NCBI GenBank assembly: GCA_021796225.1
Contig: JAJYOL010000001.1
Span: forward strand, 3,471-67,470
DNA length: 64,000 nucleotides
Reading direction: 5' to 3'
From: Candidatus Micrarchaeota archaeon
GTDB taxonomy: Archaea > Micrarchaeota > Micrarchaeia > Micrarchaeales > CABMGC01
In this document: positions 2,638 to 54,477 of the stretch, piece after piece
How positions within the stretch are numbered: position 1 is the stretch's first letter
How the letters are laid out: the number at the start of each line of letters is the position of its first letter
Notes under the pieces: model-generated
Seen by the model: only the letters and a program-made list of their open reading frames with translations
Database searches by the model: none
What the model was told of the DNA's origin: nothing
Program-made: the position numbers and the translations under genes

Positions 2638-2708
2638 ACTGTTGGATTTAAGGATCCACTCGGTAACGCAAAACGGAGGCAAACGATATTAACCGCAATC
2701 GCAATTAT

Positions 2709-3959
2709 ATGTTGATACGTATATGTAAGAAAGATGTGGTTATAACGGACTGTCCAAGAGCCTACAAATTCAGAATCTATCCCGATGCAGCAAGGCAGGG
2801 AGAGATAGACGAGAGACTAACTCTTGCGCAGCAGTTCTACAATAAACTTCTTGAGAAATCGATTCAATCATATAAGAACGGCAATCACAAAGTATCAATG
2901 GCGCAATTCAACAGATTCGTAAAGGAGGTAATATCGGAGGACAAGAAATTCCTGAAACTCTATTCGCAGACAAGATGCGAGATAGAATACAGGCTTATGA
3001 AGGCATACCAGAACTTCTTCAGGAGAATCAAGGAAGGGAACAAGAAGGCAGGTTTCCCAAGATTCAGGTCAAGAGACAGATACAAGTCAATAACTTATCC
3101 ACAGGACAACGGTTCCTTCTCAATTCACAAAGGAAGGCTCAGGGTTTCAAGGATAGGGACTATGCCGATAGAATTGCACAGGCCAATAAAAGGCAAAATA
3201 AAGACGCTTTCAATCAAGAGGGATGCCGATAAGTATTACGCAATTTTCACTGCTATGACTGAAATCAAGATTCCAGAAGTGGAAAATTCAAATCCGGTAG
3301 GAATAGACCTGGGGCTAAATTCATTCATCGCACTTTCTGACGGAACAAAGATAGAAAAACCGAAGTTCATGCAACAAAAGAGAAAGAGGATTGCCATCTG
3401 GCAAAAAAGAGTTGCAAGAAGAGATAGGGGTTCGAAGAGACGGGAGAAGGCAAAGGCAGGTCTCCGGAAGGCGTACGAACACATAACAAACCAATCGGAT
3501 GACTATCTGCACAAGTTGTCGAAAACACTGGTGACCTCAGGATACACTTCATTCGCAGTAGAAGACCTTCAAATTCAGAATATGGTAAAGAATCACAGGT
3601 TGGCAGGTGCGATTCATGACGCTTCATGGAACAGGTTCATCCAACTGCTCTCATACAAGGCTGAAAGTGCTGGTTTGAGTGTAGTCAAAGTGGATGCAAG
3701 GAACACCTCAAAGGAATGCAGTAATTGTGGCAACATCCAAGATATGCCACTCTCGGAGAGGACATACAACTGCCAGAGATGCGGAATGTCAAAAGACAGA
3801 GATATAAACGCATCGATAAACATATTGCATAGGGCAACTACCCTCGGACAGAGGGAAGGTCACGCTCAGGGAGAGAATGTAAGACCTCAACAGGAGGCAG
3901 TTCTCGAAGAACTGAGAACCGATAAAACACATCCTTTGCGGGATGCAGTGATTGCATGA
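2709..3959 (+). CDS. tnpB: IS200/IS605-family TnpB (OrfB, RuvC-like RNA-guided nuclease), solo copy
   Basis: N-terminal YKFRIYPD motif. Central RuvC-like region. C-terminal zinc finger CSNCG...CQRCG followed by DRDINASINI, typical of the TnpB RuvC-III region. Confidence 0.85.
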   Translation: MLIRICKKDVVITDCPRAYKFRIYPDAARQGEIDERLTLAQQFYNKLLEKSIQSYKNGNHKVSMAQFNRFVKEVISEDKKFLKLYSQTRCEIEYRLMKAYQNFFRRIKEGNKKAGFPRFRSRDRYKSITYPQDNGSFSIHKGRLRVSRIGTMPIELHRPIKGKIKTLSIKRDADKYYAIFTAMTEIKIPEVENSNPVGIDLGLNSFIALSDGTKIEKPKFMQQKRKRIAIWQKRVARRDRGSKRREKAKAGLRKAYEHITNQSDDYLHKLSKTLVTSGYTSFAVEDLQIQNMVKNHRLAGAIHDASWNRFIQLLSYKAESAGLSVVKVDARNTSKECSNCGNIQDMPLSERTYNCQRCGMSKDRDINASINILHRATTLGQREGHAQGENVRPQQEAVLEELRTDKTHPLRDAVIA

Positions 3960-4010
3960 ATGCAGAGGAAGCCCACACCGTTTACGGGTGGGAGGATGTC
4001 ACACTCCATA
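3960..4010 (+). ncRNA. Putative TnpB-associated omegaRNA / right-end element (hairpin CCCACACCG-TTTA-CGGGTGGG followed by AGGATGTCACACT)
   Basis: Immediately 3' of the tnpB stop. The same hairpin architecture and the GGGAGGATGTCA(C/G)ACT motif recur after the second tnpB at 54313..54345. Confidence 0.45.
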
Positions 4011-4039
4011 TCGCATGTATGTAACGCGCAATTAGATCG

Positions 4040-5819
4040 GTGGATATCATGGCAGGCATTCCTGAAAACAAACGCGCATTTCTTTCAAATGGGCTGACTT
4101 CCGCGATAGAACTTTCCGGCTCTATCGATTGGTTTCCTTGTCCGCGTTTCGATTCCCCCTCTTTATTCAGTAAAATACTTGATGAAAAATCCGGGGGGAA
4201 GTTCTCAATCCGTCCGGAACAGGAATATTCCGTTGAGAGCGTATATCTCCCAAAGACTCTTGCACTGGAAAGCACCTTTACAACAAAGGACGGGAAATTG
4301 AAACTTACGGATTTTATGCCAATAGGCGTGCCTTCGATAATTCGGATGTTTGAATCAGAAATTCCTTTCATAGCGGAAATAGATCCTATCTTCGACAATG
4401 CCATGACACGCCCATCCATTGAGGAGTTGGAACAGGGTTACGTATTCAAAAATTACAAAACGTCAGAAAGTTTTGAGGTCCGCTTTACCGGAAACTATGA
4501 GATATTAGGGCGGGGTCTCGTAAGATTTCTTCCCGGAAATGGGCACATACTCTCCATATATTTCAAAAACTTCAAATACGGCCTTTTCAGCAAGAAGGGT
4601 TTCGTATATCCATTTCCAAAAGAGGCTCTTGGGATAACCACGGAATATTGGGAGAGCCAGGTATCTGCAGCACGCGACGTGAAAAATTTTACGGATGCGT
4701 ATTACAGGTCTATAGCTGTAATGATAGGGCTCATGTATTTTCCATCGGGCGGAATTATAGCGGCTCCAACCTCATCGATACCGGAAATAATCGGGCAGAG
4801 CAGGAATTGGGACTACCGTTACGTGTGGGTAAGGGATTCTGCATATGCGATAGAGGCTCTTGCAAATGCGGGTCTTGTATCGAAAGCTTCCAGAATACTT
4901 AATTTTCTGATAAGCGTTCTCGACCCATCATCAAAGAGCTTTGATCATCCTCTTTTTCAGATAGACGGCACCGCCCCCCCCTCCAGAGGAAGAATTGGGA
5001 TGGCTGCAGGGATACAAATCGTCAAGACCCGTACGCATCGGCAATGCGGCATATCAGCAGGTCCAAATGGATTGCGAAGGAGCGTTCATCGACGCTTTGC
5101 ATACGTATGTGGCTAAAACACAGGATTTCAATTATCTTAAAGAGAACATGTGGGCCGTGCATTCGATAGCGAAATGGACGGAATCGTCATGGAAATTGGA
5201 CGGTACTTCATTATGGGAAGAACGCGAAGTAGGCAGGCATTACGTTCATTCGAAGGTCATGTGCTGGGTGTCCATGGACAGGGCGGCAAAAATGGCGCAA
5301 ATGCTGGAAAACAACACTGAAGCTGCCAAATGGCACGCGGAAGCCGACAAAATAAAGAAAGACATTTTGGAAAAAGGGATCTCGAAGACGCATGGCGGAT
5401 TTACCAAATATTATGACGGAGAAGAAACGGATTCATCCCTGCTTCTGCTTCCCCTCTACGGATTTGTCGATGCAAATGATCCTGTATTTTCAAAAACGCT
5501 GCGTCAGATAGAAAAGGAATTGATTACAAAGGAAGGGCTCATGATTCGATACAAATCCGACATGATGGGCAGCATAGTAAACCCGTTTACGCTTCTGAAC
5601 GCATGGCTGGCAAGAGTCTACATAAAACGTGGCGAAATCGACAAGGCTAAGGCAACAATAGACACCATGCTGAGTTATGCCAACGATCTGCTCCTTTTTG
5701 CAGAGCATGTAAATGCCGAGACAAGGGAACCTCTTGGGAATTTCCCGCAACTCTTTCCACATGCTGGTTTAGTACAGGCAATACTTGAATACGAGGATGC
5801 AGTTTCCTCTAAAAAGTAG
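4040..5819 (+). pseudogene. GH15 glucoamylase-family glycoside hydrolase, interrupted by a +1 frameshift in a C8 homopolymer (4974..4981)
   Basis: The N-terminal SIDWFPCPRFDSPSLF region matches archaeal GH15. The C-terminal part continues in another frame with PPPEEELGWLQGYKSSRPVRIGNAAYQQVQMDCEG (GH15 motif) and then DYRYVWVRDS. The two ORFs, 4040..5116 and 4995..5819, overlap. Confidence 0.7.
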
Positions 5820-7387: not shown

Positions 7388-7485
7388 GCAGGGGTGGCGG
7401 AGCCTGGTCAAACGCGGCAGACTCAAGATCTGCTGGCTTAGGCCTGCGGGAGTTCAAAGCATTTGAACAAATCTCTCCCCCTGCA
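7388..7485 (+). tRNA. tRNA-Leu(CAA) with a putative 13-nt non-canonical intron in the T-loop (7459..7471)
   Basis: Acceptor GCAGGGG/CCCCTGC. D-arm GCGG/ACGC. Anticodon stem GCAGA/TCTGC with loop CTCAAGA. Long variable arm TGGCTTAGGCCTGC. T-stem GGGAG/CTCTC with the loop interrupted by GCATTTGAACAAA, which pairs with exon GTTCAAA. Discriminator A. Confidence 0.65.
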
Positions 7486-27054: not shown

Positions 27055-27197
27055 GGGGTTGTTGCGTAACTTGGCAGCGCGGCAGGCTCCAGATGTTTAT
27101 TTGGAATCTATGAGCGAAATGCGATGATTAAGATTTGGAGCGATGATTTGTGATCAGGCGTTACCTGCAAATTCGGGTTCAAATCCCGACAACCCCA
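27055..27197 (+). tRNA. tRNA-Trp(CCA) with roughly 70-nt intron (about 27093..27162)
   Basis: Acceptor GGGGTTG/CAACCCC. D-arm GCGT/GCGC. Anticodon stem GCAGG/CCTGC with loop CTCCAG-A. T-arm TCGGG-TTCAAAT-CCCGA. Discriminator A. The intron contains internal direct repeats. Confidence 0.75.
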
Positions 27198-43211: not shown

Positions 43212-43320
43212 GGGCTCGTAGCTCAGCCTGGTTAGAGCGCTGGTCTTATACTGCTCTTTTGGTTTAAATCAAAAGGCATAGGCAAGCCAGATGTCGAGAG
43301 TTCAAATCTCTCCGGGCCCA
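43212..43320 (+). tRNA. tRNA-Ile(UAU) with 34-nt intron after position 37 (43251..43284)
   Basis: Acceptor GGGCTCG/CGGGCCC. D-arm GCTC/GAGC. Anticodon stem CTGGT/GCCAG with loop CTTATA|intron|A. T-arm GAGAG-TTCAAAT-CTCTC. Discriminator A. Confidence 0.7.
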
Positions 43321-51686: not shown

Positions 51687-52526
51687 ATGAAATCAAAACT
51701 TCAATCCGCAATGGAATATCTCATGACATATGGATGGGCTATACTAGTCATTGCGGTTGTTCTAGGTGTTTTGTACTCGCTAGGAATTTTTAGTCCGTCA
51801 AACTTCGCACCGAAGGCACAGCCTGGAAGCTGTCAAGTATTCAGACCGAACGGCCCTGGAACGAATTACGATATAAATCTTGAAGGAACGTGCAGCGGCG
51901 AACTGCCTGAATATGCTGCGCAATTCGATGGCAAATCAAGTTACATAAATGCCGGCGAGAGTTCGCTGCTGCAATCGAATACTTTTACTATAACGGCATG
52001 GGTAAATCCCGCAACGCTCGATTTAAGCGGAAATGCCATAACCGGCAGCTCTTCTCCAAGCGGCGTCGAGTTCAGACTGGCAAATTCCGGGGGGAAATTA
52101 TACCTGCAAGCACTCAAGGAAGACATAACTGGAATAGGGACATCTACAGGATACGTATCTGCAGGCACTTGGAGTTTTGTCGCAGTAACATACAATTCAA
52201 GTGCAAATGGTGCTTATGCCTATTACGTAAATGGGGCAAATGCAGGTTCCGGAAACAACTTGCAAACTTTCTCATGGAGCAGCCAATACATAGGAAAACA
52301 ATCAAGCAACACGGAATACTTCAACGGCATGCTCTCAAATGTGCAAATATACAACGTTTCGTTATCGGGAAATGATGTTGCCGCTTTGTACGCCGAAGGC
52401 ATAGGGGGAACACCTACAGATTTACGGCACATATGCGGCTGGTGGCCGCTGAACGGAAATGCGAACGATTACAGCGGAAACAACAACGACGGCATACCAA
52501 CTAACATTATTTACAAAAATACCTAG
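51687..52526 (+). CDS. Class III signal peptide pilin-like LamG protein, paralog 5, 3'-truncated by IS insertion
   Basis: Ends ...NDGIPTNIIYKNT* and lacks the conserved TG(S/T)WQ(S/G)GY(S/T)AP tail. A remnant of the tail sequence is found after the IS right end, at about 54352..54380. Confidence 0.75.
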   Translation: MKSKLQSAMEYLMTYGWAILVIAVVLGVLYSLGIFSPSNFAPKAQPGSCQVFRPNGPGTNYDINLEGTCSGELPEYAAQFDGKSSYINAGESSLLQSNTFTITAWVNPATLDLSGNAITGSSSPSGVEFRLANSGGKLYLQALKEDITGIGTSTGYVSAGTWSFVAVTYNSSANGAYAYYVNGANAGSGNNLQTFSWSSQYIGKQSSNTEYFNGMLSNVQIYNVSLSGNDVAALYAEGIGGTPTDLRHICGWWPLNGNANDYSGNNNDGIPTNIIYKNT

Positions 52527-52632
52527 CAGAAAGCCCACGATTTCCAATCGTGGGATGAATGCGAATGTCTTGAAATTTGATAGAAACATATCTATATAAA
52601 TTAGAAGGGATATACAGTATCTAAGAATTAAT

Positions 52633-53025
52633 ATGGGATACAAACATAAGCGAACAAGTGTGGCAATGGTAAACTACCACATAGTATTCTGTCCGAAATA
52701 TAGGAGAAAGTTATTGGTAGGTGGCATAAAGAAAAGGCTTGAAGAGGTTATGTTTGATGTCGCACTTGAAAATGGGTGGAAGATTATTTCAAAAGAGGTC
52801 ATGCCAGATCACGTCCATCTATTCGTCTCTGCTGATGTAAGGTCAAGACCAGAGATAGTAGTCAAGAGATTCAAAGGCAGAAGTTCAAGGTATCTGCGCA
52901 ATGAGTTTCCAGAGCTCTTGAAGATGCCAACATTGTGGACTCGCTCATACTTTCTTTCAACCGCAGGAAATGTGTCCGCTGCGACAATCAAGAAATATAT
53001 AGAACAACAATGGGATAAAGTATGA
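52633..53025 (+). CDS. tnpA: IS200-type Y1 HUH transposase TnpA
   Basis: 130 aa; HUH motif HVHLFV; catalytic Tyr region TLWTRSYF. Confidence 0.85.
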   Translation: MGYKHKRTSVAMVNYHIVFCPKYRRKLLVGGIKKRLEEVMFDVALENGWKIISKEVMPDHVHLFVSADVRSRPEIVVKRFKGRSSRYLRNEFPELLKMPTLWTRSYFLSTAGNVSAATIKKYIEQQWDKV

Positions 53026-53038
53026 AACAAAAACGTTA

Positions 53039-53260
53039 ATGGTCTTGGGCATAATCTCAATACTTTTGGATTTGATAATCTCTATCAGTAGTGCCATTTC
53101 CTACTTTAACAGAGCGTGCAGCTGTCCTGCTGAAATTGTAGGGCAACCTCCAATACCTTGTTGCACAGACCCGTCTGCAATCTATCTTATATATTTTGGC
53201 ATAGCCCTTGTAGTAATTGGTCTGATTGCAATAACGGTAAAATGGTTTTATAAAAAGTGA
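53039..53260 (+). CDS. Small hydrophobic ORF between tnpA and tnpB (possibly spurious)
   Basis: 73 aa, Cys-containing hydrophobic peptide. Confidence 0.25.
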   Translation: MVLGIISILLDLIISISSAISYFNRACSCPAEIVGQPPIPCCTDPSAIYLIYFGIALVVIGLIAITVKWFYKK

Positions 53261-53261
53261 T

Positions 53262-54284
53262 ATGATGATTCTAACCTTCAAAATAAAACACGAAAGAAAT
53301 TTCTCCCCTGAGTTAGGAAAGGCAAGAAAGATTGCGGAGTATGTCTTGACACACAAAACAAGGTCTTCTAAGGATGTAAAACAATTCGGTCTAAAATCCG
53401 CAATCGCAAATCAGATACTCAGGAAATATGGAAACAACGAAACAATCAAGAATGTCAATAAGATAAAACTGACTGTTCCTTCTCAGTCGGTCAACGCAAA
53501 CAAAGAGCATAGGACAATAGAAATTCCGTGTCTAAAGTTCACCGCGCCATATAACTTCAGGAACGACTACGATAAGATAAACCAGATAGAACTGGACAAC
53601 GAATACGCCTATGTTTCAGTAAATGTAAAGGAAGAGCCACAAATAGTTCCTCAAACATGGATAGGCGTAGACAGAAACACAACAGGTCATATTGCAGTAG
53701 CAGGAAATCCAGAGACAGGGAAGATTCTGAAACTCGGAAAGGAGGCACTCCATATTCACAAGAAATACAGAAACATAAGAAGGAAGATGCAAAGAGAAGG
53801 AAAGTATAGCGTGGTAAAACGGATAAAGGACAGGGAATCAAGAATAATCAAGAACATAAACCACAACGTCTCAAAGGCAATAGTTGAGGCTGCAAAGGAA
53901 AATAATGCAGGGATAAAGTTGGAGAAACTGGAAGGCATAAGAAAAAACAGGAAGCACATAAGGAACTTCAACTACGGTCTGCATAGTTGGTCGTTCTACC
54001 AATTGCAGACGTTCATTGAATACAAAGCAAAATTATATGGAATACCTCTAACCTACGTGGAGCCTAAAAACACGTCCAAGGACTGTTCAAGGTGCGGAAA
54101 CGAAGGTATTAGAGATTCAAAAAAATTCGTGTGCCAGTCGTGTGGACACGTAGACCATGCCGACGCAAATGCATCGTTCAATATATCGCAGCGTCCTCCA
54201 ATTGGAGAAGGCAGAAGTCAATTGAATGCAGACAGGGATGCATTCAAGGGCAGCACTGATACGCCCCAAGGTGCAACTCTATGA
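53262..54284 (+). CDS. tnpB: IS605-family TnpB (RuvC-like nuclease with C-terminal zinc finger)
   Basis: RuvC-like motifs; zinc finger CSRCGN...CQSCGH; DADANASFNI. Confidence 0.85.
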   Translation: MMILTFKIKHERNFSPELGKARKIAEYVLTHKTRSSKDVKQFGLKSAIANQILRKYGNNETIKNVNKIKLTVPSQSVNANKEHRTIEIPCLKFTAPYNFRNDYDKINQIELDNEYAYVSVNVKEEPQIVPQTWIGVDRNTTGHIAVAGNPETGKILKLGKEALHIHKKYRNIRRKMQREGKYSVVKRIKDRESRIIKNINHNVSKAIVEAAKENNAGIKLEKLEGIRKNRKHIRNFNYGLHSWSFYQLQTFIEYKAKLYGIPLTYVEPKNTSKDCSRCGNEGIRDSKKFVCQSCGHVDHADANASFNISQRPPIGEGRSQLNADRDAFKGSTDTPQGATL

Positions 54285-54352
54285 ACGCAGAGACACCAAA
54301 CCAAAGAGGAACCCCACGAATTTATTCGTGGGAGGATGTCAGACTGCTTCAT
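54285..54352 (+). ncRNA. Putative omegaRNA/right-end RNA of the IS605 element (hairpin plus GGGAGGATGTCAGACT)
   Basis: Same architecture as the 3' flank of the solo tnpB at 3960..4010. Confidence 0.45.
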
Positions 54353-54477
54353 GGGCTTCAACGTATAGCGCTCCTTGAAAGTTGCATTTTAACGAAATTC
54401 TGTCAATAAAGCGTATAAATGCACTCATTTAAATACCACCTCGGTCATAATATGTATCGACCACAGAGGGTTCGAAT

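Follow-up and report, generated by a model that had tools for sequence, protein, structure and literature searches.

A hairpin block shared by the 3' flanks of two divergent tnpB genes in a Micrarchaeota genome as probable transposon right end and guide RNA 3' end

Two tnpB genes are found in a 64-kb stretch of DNA from a Candidatus Micrarchaeota archaeon, herein referred to as the window, and both are followed by the same short block, a CCCAC...GTGGG hairpin with a conserved tail. The question raised by this locus is whether the block is a transposon end recognised as DNA by the transposase TnpA, the 3' end of the guide RNA used by TnpB (omega RNA, ωRNA), or both of these. The gene tnpB1 with its right end (RE) is referred to as site or element 1, and tnpB2 with its RE as site or element 2. 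The analysis makes it very probable that the hairpin with GGATGTCAN is the RE of two insertion sequences (ISs) of the IS200/IS605 family, of the IS608 type, and that the same block also forms the 3' end of an ωRNA. Coordinates of all features are collected in Table 1.

An initial annotation of this DNA had described flanking sequences with a CCCAC...GTGGG stem and a TTTA loop behind two divergent TnpB proteins. Both sequences were found at the places given, both proteins are TnpB by Pfam, and they share 25% identity over 211 residues of the RuvC/zinc-ribbon part. The shared block consists of GGAAN, the hairpin, and AGGATGTCAN, and ends at positions 4002 and 54342. At site 1 it reads GCAGAGGAAG-CCCACACCGTTTACGGGTGGG-AGGATGTCAC (3962-4002) and lies directly behind the tnpB1 stop codon; at site 2 it reads GAGGAAC-CCCACGAATTTATTCGTGGG-AGGATGTCAG (54306-54342), 3' of tnpB2. 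The 12-mer GGGAGGATGTCA has exactly two occurrences in the window, and the looser pattern CCCAC-N4-16-GTGGGA has three, compared to 0.15 expected. The third copy (52534-52555), missed before, is not an RE but the left end (LE) of element 2, upstream of tnpA.

The distribution of the block outside the window was analyzed with three data sets. First, the RE pattern CCCAC-N4-16-GTGGGAGGATGTCA was scanned for in one genome per species, which yielded at least 120 loci in Micrarchaeota, Thermoplasmata, Halobacteria, Thaumarchaeota, Bathyarchaeota, and several bacterial phyla, belonging to several TnpB clades. The GGAA motif and the bases after GTCA were not part of this search pattern. In the 120 ends listed, GGAA is conserved 5' of the hairpin, and beyond the first base after GTCA, from position +2 on, the composition is random. 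The terminal base and the base just 5' of the hairpin vary in concert: they are complementary in 90 ends, as the guide/terminal base pairs C-G (28/33), G-C (46/57), and T-A (16/24). The string reported earlier as identical behind both hairpins therefore needs trimming: it holds through GTCA plus one base, but the shared ACT beyond is flanking DNA and a coincidence, because the composition is random from position +2. Second, a motif-independent set of 80 loci was gathered via the TnpB1 protein and gave the general RE form: GGAAG, a compensating stem, a linker of 7-9 nt, TCAC, and then unrelated DNA. Third, a covariance model of the RE was built from 30 right ends, all of them from other organisms or foreign elements. 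Its only full-length matches in the window are 3967-4002 and 54308-54342, with E ~1e-10, and the next match has E > 1. The RE modules used for comparison comprised anchored extractions and hand-picked modules.

The same RE string occurs in bacteria and archaea, and therefore one end type spans both domains. Among the matches listed, a GGAAT guide with a GTCAA end, the combination of IS608, was found in bacteria, namely Endozoicomonas, Poribacteria, Nostoc, and Selenomonas (L004, L024, L028, L044, and L075; L-numbers denote the related loci used for comparison), and the RE versions ending in C or G predominate in archaea.

The boundary defined by this form is sharp. In all relatives the flanks beyond it are unrelated; the similarity of element 1 to all of its relatives stops at 4002-4006, and the homology of element 2 to L097, L073, and L011 ends at 54342. 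These data also bear on two trivial explanations, namely that the hairpin terminates transcription of tnpB or that the similarity arose by chance. A stable GC-rich hairpin just past a stop codon could be taken for a terminator, but no T-run is present, the hairpin being followed by AGGATGTCAC at site 1 and by the G-ending version at site 2. Chance is contradicted by the exact string in at least 120 genomes, by the excess of copies in the window over expectation, and by the E-values of the foreign-built model. Both explanations were rejected on these comparative data and retain practically no probability.

Which protein reads the block as DNA is suggested by IS608 of Helicobacter pylori. The TnpA of IS608 binds subterminal imperfect palindromes and finds its cleavage sites through base pairing with the 4 nt 5' of each hairpin foot. 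In the RE, the site is located 10 nt 3' of the foot, and the cleavage/guide pair is TCAA/GAAT; in the LE, the guide is AAAG and the site TTAC is found 19 nt 5' of the foot (PMC3201880). In the window, the RE tails AGGATGTCAC and AGGATGTCAG are 10 nt each from the hairpin foot to the end of the cleavage tetranucleotide. At the LE of element 2, a stretch of 19 nt ending in AAAG separates TTAC (52511-52514) from the hairpin. Both REs thus resemble IS608 in the guide-pairing rule (TCAA/GAAT there, TCAC/GAAG and TCAG/GAAC here), and in element 2 the likeness includes subterminal palindromes at both ends, both spacings, and the order tnpA-tnpB. Unlike IS608, the two elements reside in an archaeal (DPANN) host, have the stem CCCAC/GTGGG, and end in C or G instead of A; in addition, element 2 contains an extra open reading frame (ORF) of 73 aa, and element 1 lacks tnpA, its LE being dead.

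Further features of the ends follow the same logic. In relatives, the last base of the LE guide tracks the flank (AAAT with TTAA, AAAA with TTAT, and AAAG with TTAC), and within one element the LE stem and the RE stem change in parallel, as shown by CTCC...GGAG at both ends of L205 and L209. An LE profile built on TnpB1-type relatives matches the LE of element 2 (52529-52565, E = 2e-5). The RE hairpins fold as DNA with z = -2.2 at 3972-3992 (8 bp and a bulged A) and z = -3.7 at 54313-54332 (8 bp), and their stem covaries in relatives.

The conservation between the two copies is best explained, on the sequences compared, mainly by a shared DNA end recognised by TnpA, because of the covariation of guide and cleavage bases, the presence of the same hairpin at the LE, and the occurrence of the same string in at least 120 elements of many phyla and TnpB clades. 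The ends of the two element types would be alike despite their dissimilar TnpBs because both depend on the same kind of TnpA. The opposite possibility, that the TnpB/ωRNA scaffold alone drives the conservation and TnpA has no role in it, takes account of the fact that hairpin and tail belong to the ωRNA and that a pseudoknot strand lies inside the motif. It is highly unlikely, however. The same hairpin stands at the LE, outside any ωRNA, and the LE features therefore point to TnpA; covariation links the terminal base to the base just 5' of the hairpin, following the IS608 rule, yet position -1 is unpaired in the ISDra2 ωRNA; and the helices upstream of the block are unrelated in the two elements, whose TnpBs are only 25% identical. 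With the block taken as a TnpA-recognised end, TnpA would bind the CCCAC...GTGGG palindrome on the single-stranded top strand. The cleavage site would not be chosen by TnpA directly; GAAG or GAAC would pair with the tetranucleotide at the end of the 10-nt tail (TCAC or TCAG), and the predicted cuts fall after 4002 and after 54342.

Evidence for an RNA comes from the sequence upstream of the hairpin. For the TnpB1 clade, 22 sequences (54-100% protein identity) were aligned over 215 nt up to the element boundary, and RNAalifold found 14 pairs with double compensatory changes. The named structure of this clade has 98.2% of cells paired, compared to 39-44% with slid partners, and its covariation score of 0.50 exceeds all slid controls (no more than 0.11) and is reached by none of 500 shuffles. 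Helix P3, misaligned by MAFFT, can be formed by every one of the 22 sequences and shows compensatory changes. For the TnpB2 clade, 11 sequences from Micrarchaeota, Thermoplasma, Ferroplasma, and others were aligned, and RNAalifold found compensatory changes in 14 of 34 pairs. The predicted scaffolds have ~166 nt (ωRNA1, counted from P1) and ~120-133 nt (ωRNA2), and both extend into the tnpB ORFs. 5' of the terminal hairpin, ωRNA1 and ωRNA2 are unrelated, and a GCAGAG prefix previously listed as shared is not homologous but belongs to different helices in the two RNAs. Both tnpB 3' regions can thus be assigned an RNA structure that is conserved, covaries, and extends as far as the transposon boundary.

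The arrangement of the predicted 3' end can be compared with the ωRNA of ISDra2, in which a UUUA tetraloop (-20..-17) caps the last stem, the loop of stem 1 and positions -5..-3 make up a pseudoknot, and position -1 is unpaired (PMC10097598). In the window, the UUUA loop is located at -22..-19, the tail positions -5..-3 are GUC, and the P1 loop is GGACA. The pairing between loop and tail was counted in 48 distinct elements carrying a P1-type hairpin. Loop positions 2-4 pair with tail positions -5..-3 in 46 of the 48 TnpB1-type elements; loop position 4 and tail position -5 form C-G in 36 elements and A-U in 10, which none of 5000 permutations equalled. The pairing types found are GAC with GUC, GAA with UUC, and GGA with UUC. 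RNAalifold had also proposed that GAC in the DRD codons pairs with the GUC tail; this candidate was set aside, being invariant, whereas the partner in the P1 loop covaries. The S1 loop of the TnpB2 clade contains an invariant GACA, complementary to the tail like the P1 loop.

Like the ISDra2 ωRNA (8H1J / 8EXA), both predicted RNAs overlap the tnpB 3' end and the RE, and they have a UUUA terminal stem ~20 nt before the guide and a predicted guide that starts at the boundary; ωRNA1 also has the probable pseudoknot of positions -5..-3 with an upstream loop, for which ωRNA2 offers candidate partners. In contrast to ISDra2, the scaffold is longer here (~166 nt) and the pseudoknot partner is a 5-nt loop at about -155 and not at about -104; the target-adjacent motif (TAM) that we infer is TTAA/TTAT for TnpB1 relatives and TTAC for TnpB2, not TTGAT; and TnpB2 comes from a different, Cas12f-like clade with other upstream helices. 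The second system to be compared is the haloarchaeal sense-overlapping transcripts (sotRNAs), for which an "RE-like tetraloop" was described and attributed to the right end of the IS (Gomes-Filho et al., 2015; PMC4615843). Such tetraloops were found at both sites, UUUA at 3981-3984 and at 54321-54324, each on an 8-bp stem. SotRNAs are likewise sense RNAs overlapping the 3' end of IS1341-type tnpB genes, with an 8-bp stem and a UUCA or UUUA tetraloop near the 3' end, and the identical CCCAC..GTGGGAGGATGTCA string is present in many Halobacteria. The host differs, being a Micrarchaeota here, where the RNA is predicted from the sequence. For relatives, expression and processing of the sense RNA and its binding by TnpB are known (PMC4615843, PMC10278001).

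In agreement with the initial annotation, the 3' flanks can therefore be read as ωRNAs: a conserved and covarying structure reaches the boundary in both clades, the hairpin corresponds to stem 4 of ISDra2, and a GUC pseudoknot is predicted. The proposal that the guide derives from the sequence just beyond the RE is also consistent with the data; the guides would start at 4003 and 54343, where the composition is random in relatives. Transcribed together with the 3' part of tnpB, the hairpin would become the last stem of the ωRNA, and the tail GUC would pair with the GAC of the upstream hairpin loop, forming a pseudoknot that TnpB would hold beside the guide of 16-20 nt past the boundary. Excision by TnpA would leave a resealed donor site with a TAM (TTAC for element 2) next to a sequence matching the guide; TnpB would then cut the resealed site, and recombination with a sister copy would restore the element.

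Several observations weigh against this dual assignment. The covariation of the terminal-hairpin stem fits a DNA hairpin and an RNA hairpin alike. The pseudoknot covariation comes from few lineages (the GUC and UUC types), that is, from few independent events, and so gives support short of proof. The tail has two candidate partners in the TnpB2 clade, the loop GAC at 54232-54234 and GGCA at 54210-54213, and neither of them varies. Neither site has a match in Rfam 15, whether by gathering score or at E <= 10; HgcC, tied to the RE-like hairpin in the sotRNA paper, was not matched at either site in this search. Rfam appears to hold no model for these two ωRNA clades. Transcription, processing, guide length, and the homing cycle are extrapolated from work on IS608, ISDra2, and Geobacillus, and binding and cutting of the single-stranded ends by TnpA are predictions of the same kind. 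The action of the element 2 tnpA product on TnpB1-type ends in trans is inferred only from the similarity of the hairpins. Finally, the exact left boundary and the TAM of element 1 are uncertain.

The lack of an Rfam match, together with the fact that the IS608 DNA mechanism accounts for all features of the shared block, would suit a block that is a TnpA DNA end only, with no functional RNA and with upstream structure caused by, e.g., coding constraints. This reading is improbable, since the double compensatory changes in the upstream helices are far above the slid and shuffled controls and lie partly 3' of the stop codon, the tail covaries with a distant loop as needed by the ISDra2 ωRNA structure and not by DNA cleavage, and catalytic residues are kept in both TnpBs. 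A TnpA-recognised RE hairpin had been named in the initial annotation as the finding that would refute an ωRNA; instead, both roles appear to hold at once, and the block is best regarded as RE and ωRNA 3' end together.

Table 1. Positions of the features of elements 1 and 2 in the window
Feature	Position	Strand	Description and basis
Element 1, decayed LE	2640..2735	+	Alignment with L217 and L218
tnpB1	2709..3959	+	416 aa, alternative GTG start at 2736; Pfam HTH_OrfB_IS605, OrfB_IS605, and Cas12f1-like_TNB
ωRNA1 helix P1	3837..3860	+	Predicted arms 3841-3845/3851-3855, loop GGACA 3846-3850, outer pairs 3837-3839/3858-3860; 5/8 pairs double compensatory
ωRNA1 pseudoknot 5' strand	G3847-A3848-C3849	+	Putative, in the P1 loop; loop/tail covariation
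ωRNA1 helix P2	3865..3916	+	Predicted, 3865-3869/3912-3916 and 3873-3876/3902-3905; 6/7 tested pairs compensatory
P2 inner hairpin	3885-3888/3894-3897	+	Single-sequence fold
ωRNA1 helix P3	3932..3969	+	Predicted, 3932-3940/3961-3969, variable distal hairpin 3943-3947/3953-3957; contains the tnpB1 stop codon
RE guide tetranucleotide (G_R) GAAG	3968..3971	+	Last base G3971 matches terminal C4002; covariation; IS608 rule (PMC3201880)
RE imperfect palindrome (IP_R), also ωRNA1 helix P4	3972..3992	+	8 bp, bulged A3977, UUUA loop 3981-3984; stem covariation
10-nt tail AGGATGTCAC	3993..4002	+	G3998-U3999-C4000, putative pseudoknot 3' strand; TCAC 3999-4002, predicted TnpA cleavage site (transposon-encoded motif, TEM); element end 4002
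Predicted ωRNA1 guide ACTCCATATCGCATGTATGT	4003..4022	+	Flanking DNA, 5' of the GH15 gene; predicted from the ωRNA layout known elsewhere
TTAC target/TAM	52511..52514	+	19 nt 5' of the LE hairpin foot; L097 homology starts at 52511
Element 2	52515..54342	+	Complete IS605-type element, 1828 bp: LE, tnpA, orf73, tnpB2, ωRNA2/RE
LE guide AAAG and palindrome CCCACGATTTCCAATCGTGGG	52530-52533 and 52534-52554	+	DNA fold z = -4.7
tnpA	52633..53025	+	Y1 (HUH) transposase, 130 aa; Pfam Y1_Tnp, E = 2e-38; only one in the window
tnpB2	53262..54284	+	340 aa; Pfam Cas12f1-like_TNB; PDB matches; D/E/D motifs present
ωRNA2 S1	54223-54231/54240-54248	+	Predicted; invariant loop GACAGGGA; RNAalifold, 11 clade members
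ωRNA2 S2	54249-54252/54264-54267	+	Predicted; RNAalifold, 11 clade members
ωRNA2 S3	54271-54274/54295-54298 and 54278-54281/54290-54293	+	Predicted; tnpB2 stop codon in the loop; RNAalifold
Element 2 RE	54309..54342	+	Guide GAAC 54309-54312; hairpin 54313-54332 (8 bp, UUUA loop); tail AGGATGTCAG 54333-54342
Element 2 tail signals	54338-54342	+	Candidate pseudoknot strand GUC 54338-54340; predicted cleavage site TCAG 54339-54342
Predicted ωRNA2 guide ACTGCTTCATGGGCTTCAAC	54343..54362	+	From the known layout; homology to relatives ends at 54342

The TnpB1 protein has the catalytic motifs GIDLG, VEDL, and DRDINAS and matches the TnpB of ISDra2 (PDB 8H1J) over residues 17-393 with E = 2e-55. Element 1 contains no tnpA, and no tnpA or tnpB genes other than tnpA, tnpB1, and tnpB2 were found in the window by tblastn. 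Local alignment and an nhmmer profile found no LE for element 1; a remnant was revealed only by pairwise comparison with L217, which is 86% identical. The LEs of L217 and L218 are intact, and in relatives the LE has the form TTAA, then the boundary, then C..GTGAGYGGGAAAT-CCCAC..GTGGG-ATGAAAGCGAAC. In element 1, the inner part of the LE (~2690-2735) is still homologous to that of intact relatives, and the hairpin segment (~2642-2685) is diverged, with a 5-nt insertion and no fold (DNA z = -0.9). Since the LE hairpin has decayed, TnpA is probably unable to excise element 1, which is probably immobile. The tnpB gene, the ωRNA helices, and the RE appear intact, and element 1 (~2640-4002) is best read as an IS1341-type copy disabled by LE decay. 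The earlier view of element 1 as lacking TnpA and an LE was thus correct as to the missing tnpA and the missing functional LE, but overlooked the decayed remnant at ~2640-2735; what had been called a stand-alone module would be a relic of an IS1341-type element and not a distinct architecture.

Retention of an intact ORF, catalytic motifs, ωRNA helices, and RE despite a dead LE hairpin, and the existence of another copy without LE (L132), could also be expected if element 1 were a domesticated TnpB-ωRNA unit, fixed by loss of the LE and serving the host in RNA-guided regulation or in protection of the locus near the GH15 gene. This is very improbable. The closest homologs (86-91% identical) have unrelated neighbourhoods and normal ends, so no locus is conserved and the family is mobile; the RuvC residues are intact, unlike in known cases of the TldR type; the guide (ACTCCATATCGCATGT...) has no other target in the window with <=3 mismatches beside a TTAC-type motif; and a recently disabled copy is the simplest reading. 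There is likewise only a small chance that element 1 is a fixed RNA-guided unit kept by the host, its TnpB serving ωRNA-bearing remnants in trans or acting on the GH15 locus via a permanent guide.

Partly decayed ends were also observed elsewhere among the relatives of the disabled element 1. In L123 (~1141-1200) the tail is mutated to GGGAGACTGACATG, in L218 (~4716-4790) both hairpin and tail are mutated (CCTAC..., GGATGTTAC), and L132 has no LE upstream of tnpB. Disabled copies seem to be common in this family.

The genes on both sides of element 1 were analyzed as well. The gene at 1801-2637, whose stop codon (2635-2637) directly abuts the decayed LE, had been taken for a pilin paralog; its product is Cys-rich, with a zinc-ribbon-like start, weak tetratricopeptide repeat (TPR) matches, and no pilin-type N-terminus. 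On the other side, the gene for a GH15 glucoamylase-like protein (4040-5819) is split into overlapping ORFs in different frames (4040..5116 and 4995..5819), and a run of eight C (~4973-4981) is located just upstream of the overlap. The split is a frameshift and reflects a pseudogene, a slippery tract, or a mistake in the assembly.

Element 2 is complete and autonomous. It is 84% identical to L097 over exactly 52511-54342, and its predicted TAM, TTAC, is present in the corresponding flank of 6 of the 7 clade members listed. By its sequence, TnpB2 falls into the Cas12f-like TnpB clade; the start of its gene, previously placed at 53264, is corrected in Table 1. The TTAC after which the element is inserted lies four codons before the end of a LamG/ConA-like gene (51687-52526), the last three codons and stop codon of which now come from the left end of the IS. 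In L034 (855-975), from another Micrarchaeota metagenome-assembled genome, a homologous LamG-like gene is directly followed by a 5'-truncated remnant of ωRNA and RE, ~120 nt long and without tnpB. This remnant could be similar to a palindrome-associated transposable element (PATE) or could be a deleted element, and the 3' ends of LamG-like genes may be a recurrent insertion site.

An additional ORF of 73 aa (53039-53260), which has no match in Pfam, is located between tnpA and tnpB2; its product has two hydrophobic segments as well as a loop rich in Cys, CSCPAEIVGQPPIPCC. L097 keeps the ORF, but it is missing from most relatives, whose tnpA and tnpB genes overlap by 4 nt; a similar hydrophobic coding-like sequence was found in L216 between a tnpA fragment and a TnpB1-type gene. 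The ORF may be a passenger gene.

Relatives of TnpB2 with 63-68% identity were found in L205 and L206-L210 (Thermoplasma, Ferroplasma), that is, in Thermoplasmatales, the usual hosts of acidophilic Micrarchaeota. This distribution suggests exchange of ISs between the symbiont and host lineages. As for the window in general, three of its four tRNA genes (7388-7485, 27055-27197, and 43212-43320) are 98-143 nt long; introns are probable in these genes, which fits an archaeal genome. Together with the names borne by homologs, these tRNAs assign the DNA to a DPANN archaeon of the Micrarchaeota.

Sharing of ends between TnpB families has been described for ISGst1-5 of Geobacillus stearothermophilus, where several TnpB/IscB families share LE and RE and one TnpA acts in trans, most tnpB copies have no tnpA, and TAM and TEM covary with the DNA guides (Meers et al., 2023). 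The elements analyzed here differ from ISGst1-5 in the organism and the end sequences, and one autonomous and one disabled copy are found within 64 kb. The arrangement as such is already known from IS608, ISDra2, and the sotRNAs, and the current understanding of the IS200/IS605 and OMEGA systems is unchanged by these two elements; their ωRNA clades are outside curated families.

For the Micrarchaeota genome, the analysis fixes the ends of two insertion sequences (~2640-4002, with an uncertain left boundary, and 52515-54342) and predicts two guide sequences and a TTAC TAM, with one copy probably no longer mobile. For the family, it indicates that two overlapping sets of bases would be read in different ways: positions -4..-1 (TCAN) by TnpA as DNA, and positions -5..-3 (GUC) by TnpB as an RNA pseudoknot. 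This dual DNA and RNA constraint would explain why GGATGTCA is nearly frozen across phyla and unrelated TnpB clades. Covariance models for these clades, which lie outside Rfam, could be started from the two ωRNA structures.

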